From: Candidatus Melainabacteria bacterium
GTDB lineage: Bacteria > Cyanobacteriota > Vampirovibrionia > Vampirovibrionales > Vampirovibrionaceae
Direction of reading: 5' to 3'
NCBI GenBank assembly: GCA_050247195.1
Contig: JBFWUP010000001.1
Location: 661,687-725,686, forward strand
Length of the DNA stretch: 64,000 nucleotides
Each line of letters opens with the position of its first letter. Position 1 is the first letter of the stretch. Shown one piece after another: positions 3,425 to 55,690 of this stretch. Under the pieces are notes generated by a model that saw only the letters and a program-made list of their open reading frames with translations, was not told the origin of the DNA and made no database searches. A program made the translations under genes and the position numbers.

Positions 3425-4387
3425 ATGTTTGGTATGTTGGCGAATCTGATTGGCAGTGTGGTCTGGCTGGCCAGCGCCGTGGCCAGCGTGTTGTGCGTGG
3501 CCGGGTATTTTTATACGGGCCACCCCCTGCTGGATCTCGCCAGCCAGTTTTACTGGGCCTATGCTGTGGTGCTGGCCTGTGGTCTGCTGTGGATGGTTTA
3601 CCGTGTGAACACCATGGGAACCATTCTGCTGGCGCTCTGCCTGGGGTTGAGTCTCGGGAAGGTGGTTCCCACCTTCCTGCCCCTGGTGACGACCGGCAAT
3701 GCGGTGGCGTTGGGGGAACCGATCAAAATCCTGTCGTTCAACACCTGGGCCAGCAATGTGGATGCTGCTGCGATTGAACACCTGCTGGTTCAGGAACAGC
3801 CGGATCTCGCCGCGCTGATTGAAATCAGCAAGGAGAACCGGGCAAAGCTGGAAGCCACCGATATCTTTCAGCGTTACCCGGTGCATGTCCGTCTGCCGGG
3901 CAGTCAGTTGCTGCTGCTCAGTCGTTTTCCACTACAGGGCGCCCCGCGTGAATTTGGCGATCCCCCCGCACTGCAGGTGCCGCTTCGGATCCAGGGGAAA
4001 ACCGTCACGCTGCTGGTGACCCACACCACCCGGCCCATTGCCGGGTTCGGTCACTTCTCGCGGCATCTGGCGAATCTCGCTGAGCGTGTCCTCGCGTTGA
4101 AGACACCGGTCATCCTGCTTGGCGATCTCAACACCGGCCCCTGGTCAAGAGATTTTCAAAGCCTGCTGTATAAAACCGGGCTGATTAATACCCAACAGGG
4201 TTTTGGCGCACTGCCCACGTATCCGGTCAAAATTCCCAGAACGCATGTGGACTGGCCGGTTCCCGTACTGCCAATTGACCACGTGCTGGTCAGCCCGGAC
4301 TGGCGTGTACAGAGTCGCCGGGTGGGGTCGCCCGCCGGCTCGGATCACCTGCCGCTGATTCTGGAGTTGGGGCTGCAGAAACTTTAG
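3425..4387 (+). CDS. Endonuclease/exonuclease/phosphatase family protein with N-terminal TM helices (YafD-like)
   Basis: ILSFN, PDL..L.E, LLGDLN, PIDHVL and GSDHLP motifs. Confidence 0.88.
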   Translation: MFGMLANLIGSVVWLASAVASVLCVAGYFYTGHPLLDLASQFYWAYAVVLACGLLWMVYRVNTMGTILLALCLGLSLGKVVPTFLPLVTTGNAVALGEPIKILSFNTWASNVDAAAIEHLLVQEQPDLAALIEISKENRAKLEATDIFQRYPVHVRLPGSQLLLLSRFPLQGAPREFGDPPALQVPLRIQGKTVTLLVTHTTRPIAGFGHFSRHLANLAERVLALKTPVILLGDLNTGPWSRDFQSLLYKTGLINTQQGFGALPTYPVKIPRTHVDWPVPVLPIDHVLVSPDWRVQSRRVGSPAGSDHLPLILELGLQKL

Positions 4388-4391
4388 CAGG

Positions 4392-5069
4392 TCAGATACA
4401 GGAGCTAAGTTCCGTCTGGCGGATCAGGCCCTCGGCAATAGGCGCCTGTGCCTGCGCCAGCGGTGAGAACTGACCCTGCTCCGGATTGTAGGCAAACACT
4501 TCGCCGGATTCAATTTTGTAGACCCACCCGTGCAGGTTGAGTTCGCCTTTCACCATGCGAGAAGCAACCGAAGGCAGGGTACGAATGTTTTCCAGCTGTA
4601 CCAGCACATTTTCCTGAATGGCGATGTTCACACGGTCGTTATCCGTGTGGTCCTGGTAGTTCTCTTCCAGAATGCGCCGGGTGGCCTCGGCGTGTTGCAG
4701 CCATTGTCTGACGGCCGGCATTTTTTCATAACTCGCCGGATTCAGCAGACTGTTCATGGCGCCGCAATGGCTGTGGCCGCAGATAATAATGTCCTTGATG
4801 CCCAGCGCCATGACGGCATACTCAATGGTGGCCCCTTCGCCGCCGTTGGAAGCGCCATGGGGCGGGACGATATTGCCGGCATTGCGCAGAATGAACAGCT
4901 CGCCCGGGGCAGTCTGGGTAATCAGGTTGGGGTTAATCCGGGAGTCGGAACAGGTAATGAACAGGGCATCGGGACTCTGGCCATGCTGGCTGAGCCGGTG
5001 AAAAAGCTCCTCCTGGGCACTGAAAACGTGGCTCTGGAAATGGTGCAGACCATGAATCAGTTTTTGCAC
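4392..5069 (-). CDS. can: Beta-class carbonic anhydrase
   Basis: Zn ligands in CSDSR and GHSHCG; GTG start with AGGAG Shine-Dalgarno. Confidence 0.95.
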
Positions 5070-5169
5070 GGGATGACTCCTTCTGTGGCGGCCGGAAAAC
5101 GGCGGCTGACATATAAGAAATAATTAATATGATAACTGTCCGACAGTGTAGATGAACCGTCGGGTGGGG

Positions 5170-5742
5170 TCAAACACCTGGCCACAGGAGGGTGGCCATG
5201 CCCATCATAGCAAGGATCAGTGCAGTGACCATTCGGATGGCATTGAGTGGCAGGCGACTGGCCATGGCGTTGCCCAGGTAGACCACCGGCACATTGGCGG
5301 CCAGCATACCCAGCGTACTGCCCACCACCACAGCCACAACATCGTGAAAACGCGCCGCCATGGCCAGGGTGGCCACCTGGGTTTTGTCGCCCATTTCCGC
5401 CATAAAAAACAGCCACGTGGTAACCCACAGAATATTCGCCGTACCTGCGTCATCCGTGAGGGTGTCTTCATCCGCTGTGTCGGGAATGAGAATCCAGACG
5501 GCCACGGCGAAAAAGGAAACCGCCAGGCCCCAGCGCATCCATTCGGGATTCAGGGAGGCGCGCAGCCAGTAACCCACGGCGCCCGTGCCGGCGTGATTGA
5601 GCAGCGTGGCCAGAAAAATGCCGGCAATGAGGGGCAGGGGACGCCCGTAGCGAACCGATAGCATGAGGGTGAGCAGCTGGGTTTTGTCGCCCATTTCCGC
5701 CAGACAGACCAGCGCCAGAGAGGTGATGAGTGCTGTGAGCAT
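5170..5742 (-). CDS. TMEM165/GDT1 (UPF0016) Mn2+/Ca2+ transporter
   Basis: Two E-M-G-D-K-T-Q signature motifs and about six TM segments. Confidence 0.93.
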   Translation of the reverse strand: MLTALITSLALVCLAEMGDKTQLLTLMLSVRYGRPLPLIAGIFLATLLNHAGTGAVGYWLRASLNPEWMRWGLAVSFFAVAVWILIPDTADEDTLTDDAGTANILWVTTWLFFMAEMGDKTQVATLAMAARFHDVVAVVVGSTLGMLAANVPVVYLGNAMASRLPLNAIRMVTALILAMMGMATLLWPGV

Positions 5743-14422: not shown

Positions 14423-16414
14423 ATGGTTATCAGTCCACAATTTGTCGACAAAACTTCTCGCGGTGGTGCAGTGAATACTGCAATCCGGGAACGCCTGCAG
14501 TTTCTGATGATGGATGAACAAACAATTAATGTGTTGATTGATTTTTCGCGACAGCTGCCACAACTATTACCTGAGGTGTTAGACAGTTTTTACCAGCATA
14601 TCGCTCAGGTTCCTGAACTGCAAAACCTCATCGCAAAAAGCGGCACCTCCATTGAGTATTTAAAATCAGCGCAGTCTAAACACTGGGATAAACTTTTTAA
14701 CGCTGAATTTGATGATGAGTTTATTTCGCAAATCTCCAGAATCGGCCAGGCGCATCTGGATCAGAAACTATCTGAAAAATGGTTTTATGGTGGGTATTGC
14801 ATGATTCTGAACAAGTTAACGCAAGTCATTTTGAAGAATAATATGATACGACCGAAGAAAGCGGCTGAGTATATTGAAGCTGTTAATAAGGCGGTTTTTC
14901 TGGACATGGAGTTGATCCTGTCGACCATGGTCAATGAATATTCAGCCAAAGTTGTCGCTTTGGATAGTTCTCAGGCTGCCATTGAATTCAATATGGATGG
15001 AACCATTGTTACTGCCAATGAGAATTTTTTAAGTACCCTGGGTTATAGCATCGGGGAAATCAAGGGAAAGCACCACAGTATGTTTTGCGACCCGGGTTAT
15101 GTAAAGAGCCCGGATTATCCGGCGTTCTGGGATAAGCTGAACCGCGGTGAGTTCGATACAGGGGAATACAAGCGTCTCGGTAAAAATGGAAAAGAAGTCT
15201 GGATTCAGGCAACATACAACCCCATCAGAGACATATACGGAAAACTGGTGAAAGTGGTCAAATTCGCATCGGATGTGACCAGCAAAAAAACCGAGTATAC
15301 GGACTTGCTGGGCAAGGTCGAGGCCATTCAGAAATCCCAGGCTGTCATCGAGTTCAACATGGATGGTACCGTAAGAACAGCCAATGATAACTTCCTGCAG
15401 ACTCTGGGTTATTCTTTGCCGGAGATTCAGGGCAAACATCACAGTATGTTCTGTGACCAGACCTATACAGCAAGCGCCGATTACAGAAAATTCTGGGAAG
15501 ACCTGAATAAGGGTCAGTTCCAGTCTGCCGAATACAAGCGTTTCGGGAAGGGCAACAAGCCTGTCTGGATTCAGGCTTCTTATAACCCGGTTCTGGATCT
15601 GAACGGGAAGCCTGTGAAGGTGGTGAAATATGCAACCGACCTGACCCCGCAGAAAATGGCGAACGCCAAAATGGCAGATGATTTTGAGAAAAATGTGAAG
15701 TCAGTCGTTCAGTCCGTTACCACCTCTTCTTCTGAGATGCAGGTGACCTCACAGACACTCTCAGCCGCCGCTGAGGAAACCAGTCAGCAGTCTTCAGTGG
15801 TCGCCAGCACTGCCGAAGAGCTGTCATCTTCGATCAACGAAATCTCAAGGCAGTTGTCACAGGCGACGGCTGTGGTTGGTACCGCAGTGAACGAAACTCA
15901 GAACTCGTCAAGAATGGTTGCGACGCTTTTGTCGTCATCAGAGAAGATTGGCTCGGTTGTCCAGATTATTAAAACGATCGCCGCACAGACAAACCTTTTG
16001 TCGCTCAACGCCACAATTGAAGCGGCCAGTGCTGGCGATGCCGGAAAAGGATTTGCTGTTGTCGCCAATGAGGTTAAAGAGCTGGCGAAGCAGACAGCTG
16101 CACAGACTCAGGAAATTGAGCAGCTGATTAGTGAGATCCAGGAGGCTAGTTCTTTTACGGCAGACGCTATTAAAGAGATTGAGCAGTCGATTTCTCAGGT
16201 GAGTAATATCAGCAATTCCATTGCATCGGCTGTGGAAGAGCAGTCTGCGGCGACCCAGGAAGTGTCAAAAAACATCATCGGCGTCACTCAGGCCGCTGGC
16301 GACACAGGGCAGGCCTCAAACAGCGTCCTGCTGGCTGCGGATTCATTATTAAGTCTTTCTGAGGATCTTAATAAGCGCGTTGATGACTTTCTGCAGAGTG
16401 TCCGGACCATGTAA
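14423..16414 (+). CDS. Soluble chemoreceptor: protoglobin + two PAS/PAC + MCP signalling domain (start uncertain)
   Basis: Globin helices (FY.HI...P, Q.KHW..LF, IG.AH); duplicated AIEFNMDGT...[11 protein letters not shown]; [20 protein letters not shown] hairpin; no TM. Confidence 0.92.
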
Positions 16415-16722: not shown

Positions 16723-18306
16723 ATGACAGACGTGAACAATTTCGATCGCGAAGACAGAATGCGGTTTTTACAAATCACTCCCACGGACAGTAACAACATG
16801 CGGGAGTTCCTTCCTACTCTGATGCCGCAACTGGATCCGGTACTCAATGATTTTTATGCCCATGTGGGTCAGTGGCAGATGCTGGTTCAGAAACTGGGCA
16901 CCGCTTCCAACATTGAACGGGTGAAGGGGATTCAGAAGCAACACTGGGAAACCCTGTTCTCCGGTCAGTTTGATGCGAATTATTTCTCCCGGATTAACAC
17001 CATTGGCCGTACGCACGAAAAAAACGCCCTGGAGCCCCGGTATTACCTGGGTGGTTATGCTTTTGTTCTGAAAAAGCTGATTGACCTGGTGATTGGCACG
17101 TATACGACTGACCCCAAGAAAAAAGGAGCCTCCGATCCGGGTGCGCAGAAAGCCGCTGATGTCTTGAAATCAATGGTTGGCGCAATTTTTCTGGATATGG
17201 ACATTGCCATTACGGTTTACAACGATACGGTTCGTGAAACAGCCGGTTCGAAGCTGTCTGAGATCACGGTCTCTCTGGATGAAGTGCTGACCAGCGTTTC
17301 CCGTCTGGATCAGAACATCAGCACGACCGCTGCGGCCATTGAACAGATGAACGCCAACATCAGTCAGGTTCACCTGGGCAGCGCCCAGGTCAGCGGTAAT
17401 ATTCAGACCGTGGACGCCAGTGCCGTGGAACTTTCCGACAGCATGCGCTCCATGGCGGCTGCTGCCGAGGAGATGTCGGTCTCGGTCAACAACGTGGCGG
17501 ATTCTATCAAGCAGATGTCACTGGCGATGAATGAGGTGTCGAAAAACGCCACCCATGCCTCATCCATTACCGCCAAAGCTGCTGAGAAAGCCGAAAGTAC
17601 GAAAAATATTGTGGAGACACTGGGACAGTCTACCCGACAGATTGATCAGGTGGTTGAGCTCATTAAAGGCATTGCCTCCCAGACCAACCTGCTGGCGCTG
17701 AACGCCACGATTGAAGCCGCCAGTGCTGGGGAAGCCGGTAAAGGCTTTGCGGTGGTTGCCAATGAGGTAAAGGAACTGGCCAAGCAGTCTTCCACCGCTA
17801 CGGAAGACATCCGCCGCCAGGTCGAGGCCATGCAGGTCAACATGAACGAATCGATGTCAGCCATTGTGGATATTACCGAGATTATTTCCGAGATTGACCA
17901 GATCAGCAACAATATCGCCAGCGCTGTGGAAGAGCAGTCGGCCACGATTCAGGAGCTGACGACCAATGTTTCCAGCGTCGCCACGGTCACCACGGAAGTC
18001 AGTCAGACGGTTCAGAGCGCTGCGGTGAATGCTGAAAAGATTACCGATCTGATGACGGTGTCGAACGAGGCGATGTCCGGCATTACCCGCAACATCGAGG
18101 AGCTTAACCAGGGTTCCAAGGAAGTGGCGAGAACGTCGGCCGATGTGGCTCAGAGCGCCGGTTCCATTACCGAGAACCTGACCCAGGTGAACCAGATGAC
18201 CCACGCCACCATTGCGGAAGTCACCCAGGGTGCCACCAGCAAAAAAGTCGAATCTTCGGGTGGTTTTGCCGCCACAAAGGTCGGCGCTTTTGGAAAAACA
18301 GCTTAG
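16723..18306 (+). CDS. Globin-coupled chemoreceptor (HemAT-like protoglobin + MCP)
   Basis: DFYAHV, Q.QHWE.LF, IGRTH globin motifs; [30 protein letters not shown]. Confidence 0.92.
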
Positions 18307-48523: not shown

Positions 48524-50767
48524 ATGCTTTTTTCTACGCTTACGATGGCCCGCACGGCGGAGCGGAACGGTAAGGCCCCTGTGAACAGTCAGCTGGACGA
48601 GTCCCGTCAGAACACCCAGGCTCTGCTCGGCGTGATTCAGAAGCTGATGGCTGCAAAAAGCCGTGAAGAAGTCCTGATGTCGGCGTTGATGCACATCTGC
48701 GATCAGTTTGGCTGGGCTTACGGGTCATTCTGGCAGCTGGATGCCGGTGCGCAGGTGCTGCGCTTCAGTCTGGAGTCCGGCTCTGTCACCCCTGAATTTT
48801 CTCAGGTGACCCGCTCGGCCAGTTTTGCTAAAGGTGTCGGCCTGAGTGGTAAGACATGGCAGCGCATGGATCTGATGTTTGTTGAGGACCTGGGCGAGAT
48901 GGTGGACTGCTGTCGCCGTGAGCCCGCCCAGCGCGCCGGTGTGAAGTCCGGGATTTGTTTCCCCATTGTCGTCAACGGTGAGTTCCAGGGCACCATGGAC
49001 TTTTTCGCCACGGAAACGCTGACCCTGTCTGAGAACCGTCTGGATGTCCTGAGGAATGTGGGCCAGCTCGTGTCTTCTTCTCTGGAGCGGATTCTTGATG
49101 CGGAAGCCTCCCGTGATGTGGCGCTGAATGCCGAAGCCCTGAGCGAAGTGCTGGGTAAACTGTCTACGCAGTCCACAACGGAGAGCGCTGTGACAACGGC
49201 CCTGAACACCGTTAAAGAGACCTTCGGCTGGGCTTACGGGTCCTTCTGGCGCCTGGATGAAGTGGCCCAGGTACTGCGTTTCAGCGTTGAGACCGGCAGT
49301 GTGACCCCCGAGTTCACCAAAGTGACCCGCGAAGCCAGTTTTGCCAAAGGCGTTGGCCTGAGCGGTAAAACCTGGCTGAAAAACGAACTGGTTTTTGTTG
49401 AGGATCTGGGTGAGATGGTGGACTGCTGCCGCCGCGAACCGGCCCAGCGCGCCGGCGTGAAATCCGGGATCTGCTTTCCGATTGTGGTGGATGGGGTTTT
49501 TATCGGGACGATGGACTTTTTCGCCACCGAGACTTTGACGCTGTCGGCAGACCGGCTGCGGATCCTGAAAAATGTGGGCCAACTGGTTTCCTCTACCCTG
49601 GAGCGGATTAAACGCTCCGAAGCCGCCCAGGAAGTGGCGCAGAACGCAGAAGCCCTGAACCAGGTGCTGGGTACCCTGGCCAGCCAGACCGATCAGGATG
49701 AGGCCATTATCGCTGCGCTGAGCACCGTCAAGCAGGCGTTCGCCTGGGCGTACGGGTCCTTCTGGCGCCTGGATGAAGCGGCCCAGGTACTGCGTTTTAA
49801 GGTGGAAACGGGCAGCGTGACCCCTGAATTCACCAGAGTGACCCGCGAAGCCAGTTTCGCCAAGGGCGTTGGGCTTAGCGGCAAAACCTGGCAGAAAATG
49901 GAACTGATGTTTGTGAAGGATCTCGGCGAGATGGTGGACTGCTGCCGCCGTGAGCCTGCCCAGCGCGCCGGCGTGAAGTCTGGAATCTGTTTTCCGATTG
50001 TGGTGAATGGTGAAATGCGCGGCACCATGGACTTTTTCGCCACGGAAACGCTGACGCTTTCCGAGGAACGTCTGAATGTGCTCCGCAGTGTGGGCCGGCT
50101 CGTGTCCTCCGCCCTGGAGCGTATTGAAAAAGCCCAGGCCGACAAGGAAAAGGCCGAGCTGCTGATTGTGCAGGCCAAAAGCATCGCCAACGCGTCAGAG
50201 ACGGTCAGTAACCACCTGCAGAGCGTTTCCAGCGCCACAGAGGAGATGTCCACCAGTGTGATGGAGATTGCCAAGAATGCGGCCTCCGCAGCGGATATGT
50301 CGTCCACGGCAGTGACTTTATCCGAGGAGTCCCAGGCGCATATGAATATGCTGGGGAAGTCGGTTCAGGAAATCAGTAAGATTTCGGATCTGATTAAGAG
50401 CATTGCCGCCCAGACCAACCTGCTGGCGCTGAACGCCACCATTGAAGCCGCCAGCGCCGGCGAGGCCGGTCGCGGGTTCACTGTGGTTGCCAATGAGGTC
50501 AAGGAACTGGCCAAGCAGTCCACTGCCTCTACCGAGACCATTCAGAAACGGATTGAGGAGATTCTGCGCAATACCCAGGAGACGCTCGCTTCCATGGGGC
50601 AGATCACCGACCTGATCTCACAGATGAACAACATCAACACCACCATTGCCGGCGCCGTGGAGGAACAGTCTGCCGTGACCAACGAGATCACGAAATCGGT
50701 GAGCGATGCGGCGATGAACAGTAGTCTGGTGACCGAGGATGTGATGAAAATGGCCGGCATCGGTTAA
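48524..50767 (+). CDS. Soluble chemoreceptor with three tandem GAF domains
   Basis: Three repeats of WAYGSFW.LD...GVGLSGKTW...DLGEMVDCCRREPAQRAGVKSGICFPIVV.G...GTMDFF; C-terminal MCP hairpin. Confidence 0.93.
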   Translation: MLFSTLTMARTAERNGKAPVNSQLDESRQNTQALLGVIQKLMAAKSREEVLMSALMHICDQFGWAYGSFWQLDAGAQVLRFSLESGSVTPEFSQVTRSASFAKGVGLSGKTWQRMDLMFVEDLGEMVDCCRREPAQRAGVKSGICFPIVVNGEFQGTMDFFATETLTLSENRLDVLRNVGQLVSSSLERILDAEASRDVALNAEALSEVLGKLSTQSTTESAVTTALNTVKETFGWAYGSFWRLDEVAQVLRFSVETGSVTPEFTKVTREASFAKGVGLSGKTWLKNELVFVEDLGEMVDCCRREPAQRAGVKSGICFPIVVDGVFIGTMDFFATETLTLSADRLRILKNVGQLVSSTLERIKRSEAAQEVAQNAEALNQVLGTLASQTDQDEAIIAALSTVKQAFAWAYGSFWRLDEAAQVLRFKVETGSVTPEFTRVTREASFAKGVGLSGKTWQKMELMFVKDLGEMVDCCRREPAQRAGVKSGICFPIVVNGEMRGTMDFFATETLTLSEERLNVLRSVGRLVSSALERIEKAQADKEKAELLIVQAKSIANASETVSNHLQSVSSATEEMSTSVMEIAKNAASAADMSSTAVTLSEESQAHMNMLGKSVQEISKISDLIKSIAAQTNLLALNATIEAASAGEAGRGFTVVANEVKELAKQSTASTETIQKRIEEILRNTQETLASMGQITDLISQMNNINTTIAGAVEEQSAVTNEITKSVSDAAMNSSLVTEDVMKMAGIG
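48713..50130 (+). repeat. Intragenic tandem triplication with 516-bp (172-aa) period
   Basis: TGGGC(T/G)TACGG at 48713, 49229 and 49745. Confidence 0.92.
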
Positions 50768-51301: not shown

Positions 51302-54300
51302 ATGAGCGTTCCGGTCAGTAACATTCCCCAACAAACCACGTTGGACAGCGTGCTGGAAGATGAGTTGACGATCAAGGACTCGAAAGACGGCCCTGTGGCT
51401 CAGTCCTTTGCCCAGGTCAACCCGGCCGGAATGGTGTTTGACCGACGGTTCACCTCGCCCGATGTGCATCCGTTCGACGCCATTGAATATGAATACCGTA
51501 CCTCCAAAATCACCGAGCCGGATGGCACTGTGATTTTTGAGATGAAAAACGTGGAAGTGCCCAAAAGCTGGTCCCAGCTGGCCACGGATATCGCTGTCTC
51601 CAAGTACTTCCGTAAGGCCGGCGTGCCCGGCACCGGTTCTGAAGTCAGCGCCAAACAACTGGTGAAGCGCGTGGCCCATACCATCCGTGTGGAAGGCCAG
51701 GCCCGCGGTTACTTTGCCTCTGCCGAGGATGCGGAAACCTTTGAAATGGAACTCTCCCACCTGCTCATCACCCAGAAGGGCGCGTTCAACTCGCCGGTGT
51801 GGTTTAACTGCGGCCTGCACCACGAGTACGGCATTGCCGGCAGCGGCGGCAACTGGTACTGGGATGAAGCGGCTCACGGCCTGAAAGAGTCCACCAACTC
51901 GTATGAACACCCACAGTGTTCCGCCTGCTTTATTCAGTCCGTGGAAGACGACCTGATGAGCCTGTTTGATCTTGCCAAGAACGAGGCGCGGCTCTTCAAG
52001 TTCGGCTCCGGCACGGGCACCAACTTCTCCAAAATCCGCGGTCGTCAGGAGAAACTCTCCGGCGGCGGCACTTCTTCGGGGCTGATGTCTTTCCTGGAAG
52101 TCCTGGATCGCGGCGCCGGGGCGACGAAATCCGGCGGCACCACGCGCCGTGCGGCCAAAATGGTCTGTCTGGATATGGATCACCCCGAGATTGAAGACTT
52201 TATCAACTGGAAGCTGAAGGAAGAGAAAAAGGTGAAGGTGCTGATTGATGCCGGGTATTCCTCGGACTTCAACGGCGAAGCCTACCACACGGTCGCCGGG
52301 CAGAACTCCAACAACTCGGTGCGCATCAGTGACGCCTTTATGGATGCCTTTCTGACAGACGGTGACTGGCAGACGACCTTCCGCACCACCGGCGAGGTGA
52401 GCGAGACTTTCAAAGCCAAAGACCTGATGGAACAGATTGCCTACGCCGCCTGGGCCTGTGCGGATCCCGGCGTGCAGTTTGACGACATTATTAACGACTG
52501 GAACACCTGCCTGGACACCGAGCGCATTTACGGCAGCAACCCCTGTTCAGAATACCACTTCCTCAACAACACGGCCTGCAACCTGGCATCCATCAACCTG
52601 CTGAAGTTTCTGGATGACAAGGACGTGTTTGACGTGGAGGGCTACCGCCATGCCTGCCGCGTGTTCTTCACCGCGCAGGAGATTCTGGTGGATTTCGCCT
52701 CCTACCCCACCGAGCAGATTGCCGGCAACAGCCACCGCTACCGCCCTCTGGGGCTGGGTTACGCCAACCTGGGCACCATGCTGATGGTGCTGGGCATTCC
52801 CTATGACAGCCCGCAGAGCTACGCCATTACCGGTGCGGTGACCGCCCTGATGCACGGTCAGGCCTACCTCACCTCCGCTGAGCTGGCCGCCGTGAAAGGC
52901 CCGTTTGCCGCTTATGAGGAAAACAAACAATCCACCCTGCGCGTGATGAAAAAGCACCGCGACGCCTGCTGGGATATCAGTGCGGCCGACTGCCCGGCCA
53001 CCCTGCTGAAATCCGCCAAGGCGCTGTGGGATGACCTGCTGAACCAGGGCTATGAATATGGGTATCGCAACGCCCAGGCCACGGTGCTGGCGCCCACCGG
53101 CACCATCGGGTTGCTGATGGATTGCGACACCACCGGGATTGAACCGGATTTCTCCCTGGTGAAGTGGAAGAAGCTTGCCGGGGGCGGCTACTTCAAAATT
53201 ATCAACCAGAGCGTGCCGCGCGCCCTGAAAAAACTGGGCTACACCGAAGCCCAGATTACCGGGATACAGCACTATATTCTGGGCACCGGCACCCTTAAAG
53301 GCGCGCCGTTTATTTCGGAGGCCGTTCTGAAAGAACGCGGCTTTACGGATGAACAGATTAAAGAGGCCTACGAGAGTGTGAAACTATCCAGCAGCTTCAA
53401 CGAGTGGACGGCGGGCATCACGCCCGACATGCTCAAGAAAAGCGGCATGCCCGGCGCTGAAGTGAAGGCGGTGGTGAACTACGTGAACGGCACGCAGACC
53501 ATTGAGGGCGCGCCGCACATGAAGGATGAACACCTGGCCGTGTTTGACTGCGCCAACCGCTGCGGTGAAGGCAAACGCTTTATTGATCCGATGGCCCACA
53601 TCAAGATCATGGCCGCAGCCCAGCCCTTCCTGTCGGGCGCCATCTCCAAAACGGTCAACCTGCCGGGCTCGGCCACGGTGGAGGACATCAAGGAGATTTA
53701 CGTGGATGCCTGGAAGATGGGCCTCAAGTGTGTGGCCCTCTACCGCGACGGCAGCAAATTCTCCCAGCCGCTTAGCAGCGCTAAGTCTTCGGATGACGAT
53801 GATGACGAGCCGGCGGTCGCTTCAGCGGCTGAAACGGCGGCGGCTGAACCCGCTGCGCCCATGGTGGTGTGGGGCCAGAAGAAACACCTACCCCAGCGTC
53901 GCGACGGGATGACCGTGGAAGCCAACGTGAGCGGCCACAAGGTATACCTGCGTACGGGCGAGTATGAGGATGGCCGACTGGGCGAGATCTTTATTGATAT
54001 GTTCAAGGAAGGCGCCGCCTACCGGAGCATGGTCAACTGTCTCGCCGTGGCGGTTTCGCTGGGCCTGCAGTACGGCGTGCCGCTGGAGAAGTTTGTGGAC
54101 TCGTTCACCTTCACCAAGTTTGAGCCGGCCGGCGTGACCGATCACCCGAACATCAAGATGTCCACCTCCATTGTGGACTTCATCTTCCGGGTGCTGGGCA
54201 TGGAGTACCTGGGCCGCACGGACTTTGTGCAGATTCCGCCTTCGGAAGGCAAAACCCGCTCCGAGCTGACGGCCATGATTGCCGAGTCCGCCGTGAGCGT

Positions 54301-54542: not shown

Positions 54543-54632
54543 TATCCAATTTTAGGTTCAAATTCACCTCTCTCATTTCTCCCCGAGTGGGACAGGTAGT
54601 TAAATGGGGAAAACAATAAGGAGGATTTGTCA

Positions 54633-54812
54633 ATGAAAGACAAAACCTACAAACCGGGACAGGAGGTCCCTAAATCCGGACAGTACGGTGTCTATGGCCC
54701 GAAAGGTGGTTACCAAGGACACGAGGTAACCGCAACTAAGGGTGAACCATTCTGCCCAACGCAAAAGCCGGGCCAGCAGTTTAAGCTGCACGACCCGACC
54801 AAGCACAAATAA
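54633..54812 (+). CDS. YjzC-family small protein
   Basis: KPGQEVPKSGQY...GP.GG....EVT...GEPF.PT.KPGQ pattern; AAGGAGG SD. Confidence 0.85.
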   Translation: MKDKTYKPGQEVPKSGQYGVYGPKGGYQGHEVTATKGEPFCPTQKPGQQFKLHDPTKHK

Positions 54813-54917: not shown

Positions 54918-54958
54918 CCCCTCACCCCCTGCCCCCTCTCCCGCAAGGGGAGAGGGGG
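54918..54958 (-). repeat. BoxC-like hairpin+tail element, copy A (inverted relative to B)
   Basis: CCCCTCACCCCCTG-CCCCCTCTCCC-GCAAG-GGGAGAGGGGG. Confidence 0.9.
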
Positions 54959-55061
54959 TGAAGGTTACCCGCAAGAGTGTGGAGAAAGAGCTCAAGGTCA
55001 TTTTTGGTGGTTCATGTCTTTTGTGGCTTGCAAAGCATTGTGGCGGAGAAACAACCAACGG

Positions 55062-55105
55062 CTCCCCCTCTCCCCTTGCGGGAGAGGGGGCCGGGGGGTG
55101 AGGGG
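55062..55105 (+). repeat. BoxC-like element, copy B
   Basis: CTCCCCCTCTCCCCTTGCGGGAGAGGGGGCCGGGGGGTGAGGGG (11-bp stem, 5-nt loop, G-rich tail). Confidence 0.92.
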
Positions 55106-55141
55106 CATTCCGGAGATGGAGGGTATTACGAGGAATCTAAC

Positions 55142-55477
55142 CTACAGACGATCCAATGTCTCCCTAATCCGCATAAGTACACTGTCGCGATGGTGAAGCA
55201 CCTCGGCCGTGGTGAAGCGAATGACTGTCAAACCCAGAGCCTTCAGGAAATCCTGGCGGGCGATGTCATTGCCGCGTTGTTCGGCTTCCAGATGGATGCC
55301 GCCATCAATCTCAATCACCAGTTTTTTGGCAGGGCAGAAGAAATCGACAATGTAACGTTCAATCGGCTGTTGTCTCCGGAAACGATAGCCGCCCAATTGC
55401 TGATTCCGAAGTTCACGCCAGAGCAATGCTTCGGTCTTGGTCTGGTCCCGCCGCAAGATTCTCGCCACGTCTTTCAT
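55142..55477 (-). CDS. DUF559 / YcjD-like (Vsr-like) endonuclease-domain protein
   Basis: AR.LRR..T..E..LW..LR, FRRQ.PI..YIVDF.C, LVIEIDG..H and D..R..FL...G..V.RF motifs. Confidence 0.95.
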   Translation of the reverse strand: MKDVARILRRDQTKTEALLWRELRNQQLGGYRFRRQQPIERYIVDFFCPAKKLVIEIDGGIHLEAEQRGNDIARQDFLKALGLTVIRFTTAEVLHHRDSVLMRIRETLDRL

Positions 55478-55489
55478 GGTGCCATTGTA

Positions 55490-55533
55490 CTCCCCCTCTA
55501 CCCTTGCGGGAGAGGGGGTCGGGGGGTGAGGGG
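55490..55533 (+). repeat. BoxC-like element, copy C (direct repeat of B, 12 bp upstream of the DUF559 start)
   Basis: CTCCCCCTCTACCCTTGCGGGAGAGGGGGTCGGGGGGTGAGGGT; about 3 differences from B. Confidence 0.92.
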
Positions 55534-55690
55534 TATTCGGGGCAGTCAGTGGCGTGGGGTATTGCTGGGAAGACTCGGAGGAGTGGGCTGAGTGGAGTCA
55601 GTACTGATCCACAGAGATATACCCCGTATACTTTTTCTTGCGAAGCGTAAAGTTTGGGGCGGGATTTAAAACTATTCGTGTAATATGTGG

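Follow-up and report, generated by a model that had tools for sequence, protein, structure and literature searches.

We propose that positions 54918-55533 of the 64,000-nucleotide stretch analysed here (the window), which comes from a metagenome-assembled genome (MAG) of a landfill metagenome, are probably one copy of a widespread selfish nuclease-repeat element, in which a gene for a small nuclease of the DUF559 family travels with cognate, triplex-forming repeat units as its ends. We infer that the DUF559 nuclease itself moves the repeats. A broader proposal, for which we see a somewhat less than even chance, is that the DUF559 proteins are the long-missing mobilizers of the BoxC/PIT/TM repeats, forming a phylum-spanning class of transposable elements whose sole protein is a 110-residue EDxHD/Vsr-like nuclease, whose triplex-forming hairpin ends are recognized as structure, and which can live in-frame inside essential genes.

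The 111-residue protein encoded by the open reading frame (ORF) at 55142-55477 on the minus strand matches the Pfam DUF559 model (PF04480) with E=2.8e-35; its 120.9 bits exceed the cut-off of 20.6, and the match spans positions 4-108 of the 109 in the profile. The score of 78.1 bits against NCBIfam PRK09767 lies under that model's 218-bit cut-off. The intact gene is bracketed by three of the four 44-nt units in the window (A, B and C within 54918-55533, and D at 62147-62190). Their layout is CT, an 11-bp hairpin of a C-rich and a G-rich arm (CCCCCTCTCCC/GGGAGAGGGGG, loop CTTGC), a linker of 2-3 nt and a G-rich tail, with one stem mismatch, in copy C. The features are as follows.

54918-54960, minus strand: unit A; on the plus strand, C-tail 54918-54929, linker TG, hairpin 54932-54958
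54959-55063: A-B spacer, 105 nt, unique; A and B form a tails-outward doublet
55062-55105, plus strand: unit B; CT, hairpin 55064-55090 (arms 55064-55074 and 55080-55090), linker CCG, tail 55094-55105
55142-55477, minus strand: DUF559 gene, 111 residues, small EDxHD/Vsr-like nuclease
55490-55533, plus strand: unit C; CT, hairpin 55492-55518, linker TCG, tail 55522-55533
62147-62190, plus strand: unit D; core identical to that of B, no nuclease gene nearby
62173-62280, plus strand: tandem array of three 36-bp copies, each with a tail (GGGCYGGGGGGTGAGGGG...)
62965-62990: tail-less degenerate hairpin of the same style, just upstream of an acyltransferase ORF

Taking B (55058-55110) as the reference of a direct repeat family, C (55486-55538) matches it at 87% and D (62143-62195) at 94%, the 44-nt cores of B and D being identical. 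Unit A, which on the minus strand runs from hairpin to G-tail, is inverted relative to B, C and D; its 34-nt arm (54925-54958) is 97% complementary to that of B (55064-55097), 105 nt away. As single-stranded DNA, B has a folding energy of -16.1 kcal/mol. B lies 37 nt past the DUF559 stop codon and presents, on the gene strand, a C-tail followed by the hairpin, as downstream units usually do. C is located 12 nt before the ATG, with the frame of the gene open throughout it. The tail 13-mer (at most one mismatch) occurs six times in the window, always at or beyond 54918, against a mean of 0.33 in shuffled controls, none of which (0/100) reached six, and a hairpin search of the first 54 kb found no copy. 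An earlier note on this DNA had described the gene between direct repeats B and C, the inverted copy A paired with B, the distant copy D lacking a nuclease, the stem-and-tail architecture and the repeat-free first 54 kb, and Pfam and repeat comparisons bear out this description. Its "variant" near D resolves into two further tails in the tandem array and the tail-less hairpin, and its direct arrangement of B and C is real but belongs to a minority among relatives, whose flanks are usually inverted. Because C has the opposite orientation to that of the common layout and an extra gene-less doublet (A-B) is present, the window locus looks rearranged rather than pristine, and is an atypical, probably rearranged copy of the element. 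The A-B spacer has no second copy among all sequences compared; we considered that it might be a DUF559-gene remnant like the one in Escherichia coli described below, and rejected this as it has no similarity to the gene. In metagenome run X1, the contig of the DUF559 segment (55077-55533) has a depth of 26.6 against 35-40 in both flanks, and a 405-nt skip (55103 to 55509) appears at a depth of 11, its joint resting on only 21 nt within the repeat; together these are suggestive of what could be a gene-less allele in ~30% of the population, but are not usable as evidence of one.

Unit D lies in frame with the acyltransferase ORF (62141-62947, minus strand) and forms its C-terminal end. This PlsC-like ORF crosses the three tandem tails and unit D and ends in ...STPHPPAHGAAESTPHPPAPSPARGEGES, the repeats supplying ~50 C-terminal residues and the stop codon. 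The array itself is a tail-only amplification beside D, and a similar tail duplication is present in a related population (L092).

Examination of the unit reveals that it is already known. BoxC came to notice in E. coli early in the 1990s and was re-described as the PIT element and then as TM motifs (TM_ECO); it is reportedly also to be credited to Bergler 1992 and Bachellier 1999, and Hoyne/Maher 2000 is a further reference for it. The earlier note had given the pyrimidine tail and hairpin of BoxC as a likeness, and had overlooked that the unit itself had been described under these names. The tail is a mirror image of the purine arm, with each A kept or turned to T: in the window, the arm GGGAGAGGGGG reversed is GGGGGAGAGGG and the tail is GGGGGTGAGGG. 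All four window units, including A with its 2-nt linker, obey the purine-motif triplet rules G.G:C, T.A:T and A.A:T. Among 156 G-tailed units from related loci, a full-arm match under these rules was obtained for 70% of units with their own tail against 15% of cross-unit pairs, with violations in only 8/1107 triplets; asymmetric arms gave 119 mirror and 16 direct matches (permutation mean 25, maximum 40), 43 of the 70 distinct arm sequences have a perfect mirror tail, and the linker is 3 nt in 92/117 cases. The purine arm and tail also match a G-quadruplex regular expression, a reading that we set aside because the mirror/triplet co-variation explains the positions of the A and T interruptions.

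The single strand of the E. coli BoxC/TM motif folds in vitro into an intrastrand triplex that is stable, as seen by circular dichroism and nuclear magnetic resonance (PMC4666352). The same survey reports 23 copies in strain K-12, five pairs of them as inverted doublets, a G/C-rich type in more than 260 genomes, motif sites that are unusually rearranged between strains and linked to genomic instability, PIT units devoid of promoter or terminator activity, and no transposase, integrase or mobile element ever found beside the motifs (PMC4666352, Holder et al. 2015). In the window, a promoter or terminator role for the units was likewise rejected, with no signal above shuffles, as was a known RNA family at the locus, which gave only chance hits below threshold.

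A variant form of the unit points to structure as the object of selection. In 25 high-GC loci, where DUF559 lies between terminase and portal genes, a second hairpin replaces the 3-nt linker. Counted directly, since a MAFFT alignment of these compound units is not in structural register, the second stems are perfect over 5-7 bp in 40/41 units with 15 different stem sequences, and the stems at the two ends of one element differ in each of the 18 loci readable at both ends, whereas shuffled sequences reach a 5-bp stem in only 5% of trials. Together with the mirror tails, this pattern of sequence change indicates that the unit structure is under selection, the second hairpins being maintained by compensatory change. 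These loci (among L214-L239) are on IMG/VR contigs of 6-9 kb with a GC content of ~0.71, in a head cluster like that of a gene transfer agent or prophage. Just outside the upstream unit they have a conserved GAAC-N7-GAAC, which we take to resemble the alphaproteobacterial LexA box.

The association of gene and repeat was then surveyed in 80 loci encoding relatives 41-58% identical to the window protein, on one-genome-per-species contigs from Bacteroidota, Chloroflexota, Desulfobacterota, Proteobacteria, Verrucomicrobiota, Nitrospirota, Cyanobacteria, Planctomycetota and the candidate phyla radiation; loci were retrieved with profile A2, a first profile (A1) being too diverse. The density of hairpins with a C-rich arm is 4.0/kb within ~220 bp of the 80 genes and falls to 0.16/kb over the remainder of the loci, other intergenic DNA standing at 0.42/kb. 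A unit is present on at least one side of 67/80 DUF559 genes and of 67/758 control ORFs from the same loci (Fisher p=1e-47), and on both sides of 55/80 and 4/758, respectively (Fisher p=2e-61). In a motif-blind test based on the best inverted match between the flanks, 50/73 loci scored higher than the 99th percentile of scores from 700 control intervals, and Flavobacterium loci missed by the detector have miniature versions such as ACCCCAGCCCTAAAGGGAGC. Conversely, DUF559 was found in six of 120 metagenome contigs holding the exact window subtype, 26-140 bp from the unit, and these account for six of the seven DUF559 matches in 784 kb of metagenome loci. The open-frame share of solo units proved uninformative in GC-rich DNA, where 90% of random positions are likewise open. 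The same layout recurs in cultured organisms, namely at ycjD of E. coli K-12, in Neisseria gonorrhoeae (the gene whose product is PDB 3HRL), on plasmid pAQ6 of Picosynechococcus PCC 7002 and in Deinococcus proteolyticus. These observations support an association that is no local accident and holds across phyla; enrichment near DUF559 genes was a check that the earlier note had proposed. Gene-less units outnumber gene-linked ones 10-20 to 1, an excess that matches the RAYT/REP pattern. The link between DUF559 and the BoxC/PIT/TM motif appears to be new: no paper linking the two was found in the literature on DUF559, ycjD and triplex motifs, a coverage that excludes subscription journals, so that a prior description is possible.

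Furthermore, the units pair with their genes by subtype. Two loci of the same Bacteroidales MAG (L002 and L007), whose proteins are 50% identical, have the subtypes CCCCCTCTCC/GGGGGTGAGG and CCCTTCCCCC/GGGATGGGGG, each gene with its own subtype on both flanks; the same holds for two DUF559 copies, 38% identical, on an Opitutales contig (L071), while near-identical DUF559 paralogues share one subtype. In 31/50 loci the best partner of a flank is the opposite flank of the same gene, and across loci the similarity of flanks rises with protein identity (Spearman 0.24; Mantel test, 0/999 permutations; 50 loci). Shared ancestry contributes to this correlation, and the within-genome cases are independent of that effect; co-variation of subtype with DUF559 was a further check proposed in the earlier note. 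Where both tails are callable, the flanks are inverted in 23/27 loci, 17 with tails toward the gene and six with tails outward.

We also observed that the gene and its flanking units behave as one insertable block, a conclusion supported by several comparisons. Two loci from Verrucomicrobiota MAGs (L056 and L061) are 82% identical over ~495 bp between unrelated flanks, the similarity starting and stopping at the outer edges of two hairpins. A Chloroflexota copy and a Binatia copy are 76% identical in DNA, which across phyla points to horizontal transfer. In the leucyl-tRNA synthetase (LeuRS) gene of Chitinophagaceae, one site holds the element in three genomes and lacks it in a fourth, and a second site is filled in two, occupied by a solo unit in one and empty in one. 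In loci L084-L093 (~3900-5200), which encode an identical DUF559 protein, the flanks vary between strains: a 125-nt piece that itself ends in a hairpin is inserted between a hairpin and its tail in L088 and L092, the other copy of this piece is partly deleted in L088, and L092 has in addition a tandem tail duplication and a hairpin-to-hairpin deletion. Gene-less doublets of the same geometry occur beside genes (L028, L075).

In E. coli K-12, ycjD (b1289) lies between fabI and sapF, in keeping with the earlier note, which had placed it beside fabI; a BoxC unit lies ~165 bp beyond its stop codon, and the 3' end of ycjD itself runs into a hairpin. Between this hairpin and BoxC, the last ~45 nt of ycjD are duplicated (L001, 2836-2860 and 2940-2965), and this looks like a remnant of an earlier DUF559 copy. 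The gene stands in place of the eefRABCD operon (PMC12817139). In an eef-positive strain, homology to K-12 ends ~40 nt before BoxC and BoxC is absent; therefore BoxC, the duplicated ycjD remnant, the hairpin and ycjD constitute one indel block. Both LeuRS and the ycjD block of E. coli thereby offer filled and empty sites.

For approximately 20 of the 80 loci, a long host ORF contains the DUF559 domain together with both units in-frame, and Pfam domains of the host are present on both sides. The hosts, which include housekeeping and restriction-modification proteins, are as follows.

LeuRS: L008 (8321-11569), L035 (two insertions), L051 and L081
Chorismate synthase AroC: L025 (2919-4415), its profile split into 1-168 and 169-327
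MetH: L039 (6887-11281)
Lhr helicase: L038
HsdS: L011, L024, L034 and L071, the insertion lying between the two specificity domains
Type ISP enzyme: L004 and L014
A further in-frame host: L009
A protein with an FGE-sulfatase domain

In another locus (L057), an in-frame fusion places the DUF559 domain upstream of a methylpurine glycosylase. Translation of the units gives Pro/Ser-rich ... Gly/Glu/Arg linkers, and these same peptides also form the end of many free-standing homologues, for example ...PHPSPLPQAGEGE.

As regards the enzyme, the window protein retains E16, D45, D58, H62 and D71, the invariant columns of the family being E16, W20, R35, D45, E56 and D58. Its closest solved structure is PDB 3HRL (E=1.7e-23), and its closest characterized relative, a second point overlooked by the earlier note, is the EDxHD homing endonuclease I-Bth0305I, which cleaves a pseudopalindromic site as a dimer (PMC3239194). 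The family profile matches the catalytic domain of the latter (3R3P) with E=1e-5 and aligned active-site columns, such that D45, H62 and D71 correspond to D196, H213 and D222; E16 falls outside the aligned stretch, and its equivalence to E170 is therefore only inferred. An AlphaFold2 model of the window protein (pLDDT 93.5) predicts a Vsr-like catalytic fold, with Foldseek matches to 3HRL (TM-score 0.76), to 3R3P (E=3.5e-4, TM-score 0.68/0.76) and, weakly, to Vsr (TM-score 0.46), the name under which JGI annotates homologues. The window protein is a bare catalytic domain lacking the N-terminal NUMOD/helix-turn-helix (HTH) DNA-binding region of I-Bth0305I, and there is no intron or intein at its gene. 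Foldseek also matched the model to mitoribosomal proteins of Tetrahymena and Toxoplasma (TM-score 0.58-0.63), which suggests that a DUF559-like fold may have been recruited into organellar ribosomes.

In light of these features, we posit a mechanism in which the gene encodes a small homodimer-type EDxHD/Vsr-like nuclease and the G-rich strand of the end units can form an intrastrand purine-motif triplex. The nuclease would nick or cut at or beside its cognate unit, either as duplex or as folded during replication, and repair of the break might take its copy from a different site that bears a unit or might proceed through template switching at the hairpin. Such copying would spread both gene-bearing and gene-less units and could yield local indels, tail duplications and doublets. 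With a homing endonuclease as the closest relative, a homing-like mechanism is at least as likely as a RAYT-like one.

Several observations weigh against a nuclease-driven element. No DUF559 protein is known to act on these units. BoxC-like units are present in all 5426 complete E. coli genomes, at a median of 18 per genome, with ycjD in 3378 of them; hence 2048/5426 (38%) keep ~18 units without the gene. One identical DUF559 protein (P0072), tried as proof of recent transposition on the premise of several genomic contexts, was rejected as such, for it has the same context in 23/23 contigs, and the 25 alphaproteobacterial loci are all found at a single position; the inheritance of many copies is therefore vertical and stable. 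The subtype of the window's unit, over 42 nt, also occurs beside proteins only 45% identical to that of the window, so that specificity is not strict. Two inverted orientation classes and a few direct cases would not be predicted by a single rigid transposition chemistry. At the L056/L061 and LeuRS junctions, as compared between diverged genomes, no target-site duplication could be seen, and no clean empty-site allele of the window locus was found in metagenome runs, where Logan contigs break at the repeats. The survey itself speaks for the DUF559 subfamily at least 41% identical to the window protein and not for all DUF559. Finally, in vivo dimethyl sulfate footprinting did not detect the triplex (PMC4666352). 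The RAYT/REP-like mobile system proposed in the earlier note is thus partly supported, by the association, the subtype pairing, the block behaviour, the gene-less excess and the lack of any HUH, DDE or recombinase gene, while the E. coli genomes with BoxC alone and the single context of P0072 argue against a strict dependence of the repeats on the gene.

The main rival, which we regard as unlikely yet deserving of serious attention, holds that the units spread alone or by another factor (replication slippage, host recombination or another enzyme) and that DUF559 is a free-standing homing gene that uses them as landing pads and homology arms, moving only itself. The kinship with a homing endonuclease, the gene-less doublets of the same geometry (L028 and L075; five in K-12, PMC4666352), the solo unit at a LeuRS site filled in other genomes and the persistence of BoxC in E. 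coli without ycjD all agree with it. However, it does not account for the pairing of every nuclease lineage with a unit subtype of its own, which is seen even inside a single genome, or for the arrival of units in more than 260 genomes with no other associated gene (PMC4666352); moreover, both flanking units are intact after insertion, unlike a classical homing site.

A lesser and distinctly improbable rival is that DUF559 is a domesticated host nuclease for the repair or processing of hairpin or triplex obstacles, the nearby units being regulatory or merely accumulated. Such a role would accord with the stable single-locus inheritance in 23 contigs, the conserved terminase/portal position with its LexA-box-like motif, the hairpins kept by compensatory change and the link of the units to genomic instability (PMC4666352). 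It offers no plausible logic for in-frame insertions in LeuRS, AroC, MetH and Lhr, and sits poorly with the patchy distribution, which varies by presence or absence within species, with the 76% cross-phylum DNA similarity and with PIT units having neither promoter nor terminator activity (PMC4666352). Mere coincidence, whereby GC-rich hairpin repeats and small accessory genes both gather in permissive intergenic spots, can draw on a general enrichment of units in intergenic DNA (0.42/kb, whereas coding DNA has 0.10/kb), but we give it almost no credence in view of the 55/80 DUF559 genes against 2/240 small control ORFs flanked on both sides, the subtype pairing, the sharp block boundaries and the reverse test.

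If the selfish nuclease-repeat element is real, it bears on two long-standing puzzles. The origin and means of spread of BoxC have long been open, the 2015 survey reporting no mobility gene nearby (PMC4666352), and the association across phyla suggests a source for these orphan repeats. No function has been assigned to the very large DUF559 family, and the link gives both gene and repeat testable roles, which YcjD and BoxC in E. coli K-12 make open to standard genetics. It would add one more nuclease family to the short list tied to the proliferation of bacterial repeats, would provide a natural protein partner for a non-B DNA structure, and would account for the nuclease-domain insertions annotated inside LeuRS, MetH, AroC, HsdS and other proteins.

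Within 10 kb of the window's DUF559 gene there is no transposase, integrase, HUH, DDE or recombinase gene, and no cytosine methyltransferase adjoins it; its neighbours are a class II ribonucleotide reductase, a small YjzC-like ORF, a 159-residue protein without known function and a 2-oxoacid:ferredoxin oxidoreductase. The YjzC-like ORF (54627-54812, plus strand, 61 residues), between the ribonucleotide reductase gene and unit A, is a weak match below the cut-off (E=6e-4). Elsewhere in the window, a 52-nt direct repeat (59344-59395 and 60488-60539, 85% identical) ends in a CCTCC-GTTTG-GGGGAGG hairpin ~60-75 nt upstream of two minus-strand genes, for the 2-oxoacid:ferredoxin oxidoreductase alpha subunit and for a 330-residue protein lacking a Pfam match, and may be a shared leader or regulatory element. 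Three repeat copies of at least 300 nt at 48683-50014, spaced by 516 nt and 74-85% identical, with a related stretch at 51853, probably encode a repeated protein domain, and three 300-nt stretches that are 63-72% alike (15962-16261, 17656-17955 and 50387-50686) are probably paralogous coding sequence.

Several known systems resemble the element in part. The Vsr repair endonuclease is a distant relative in fold and has lent its name to homologues; the window gene differs in having no adjacent cytosine methyltransferase, in the weakness of the structural match and in an entirely different genomic behaviour. IS200/IS605 elements and MITEs (miniature transposable elements with inverted repeats) have sub-terminal hairpins, distinguishable left and right ends and non-autonomous derivatives. 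The DUF559 element shares all three features, but has neither a Y1 nor a DDE transposase, its ends are inverted rather than on one strand, and comparisons of diverged genomes revealed no target-site duplication. The Rickettsia palindromic elements, reportedly described by Ogata et al. 2000, are said to be selfish palindromes that lie in-frame within housekeeping genes and whose translation yields peptide loops that are tolerated; they differ in carrying no gene, where here a whole nuclease domain is in-frame, and in their phyla and sequences.

RAYT/REP systems, built on repetitive extragenic palindromic (REP) sequences, are reportedly also to be attributed to Nunvar 2010. Like the RAYT/REP-REPIN systems (Bertels and Rainey 2011, PMC3116915), the DUF559 element has a single-copy nuclease-type gene with short palindromic repeats of a family of its own on either side, far commoner gene-less singlets and inverted doublets, and paralogues within one genome with different repeat families. 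It differs in that DUF559 is a PD-(D/E)XK-type EDxHD/Vsr-like nuclease and not an HUH Y1 transposase; the latter was not found, the window protein matching only DUF559-type models with no transposase within 10 kb. Moreover, the window units lack the GTAG/CGTC tag, their edge being CT followed by a C-rich arm and a triplex-forming G-run tail. With I-Bth0305I, a dimer on its pseudopalindromic site (3R3P; PMC3239194), the window protein shares the catalytic fold and the E, D, H and D residues, in a family that includes free-standing genes; it differs in lacking the NUMOD/HTH region, in lying outside any intron or intein, in having cognate repeats on both sides and in having no known unique conserved target gene.

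The closest likeness of the units themselves is to BoxC/PIT/TM. Both have a pyrimidine arm, a purine arm and, across a short linker, a G/T/A third strand in mirror order to the purine arm, are of the G/C-rich type, occur singly and as inverted doublets and are linked to local rearrangement, and the E. coli member adjoins ycjD. Unlike the BoxC/PIT/TM motifs as described, which are orphan, always intergenic and without a mobility gene ("we never found ... transposases or integrases"), the units described here bracket a nuclease gene and vary in step with it, and they are also found in-frame within genes.

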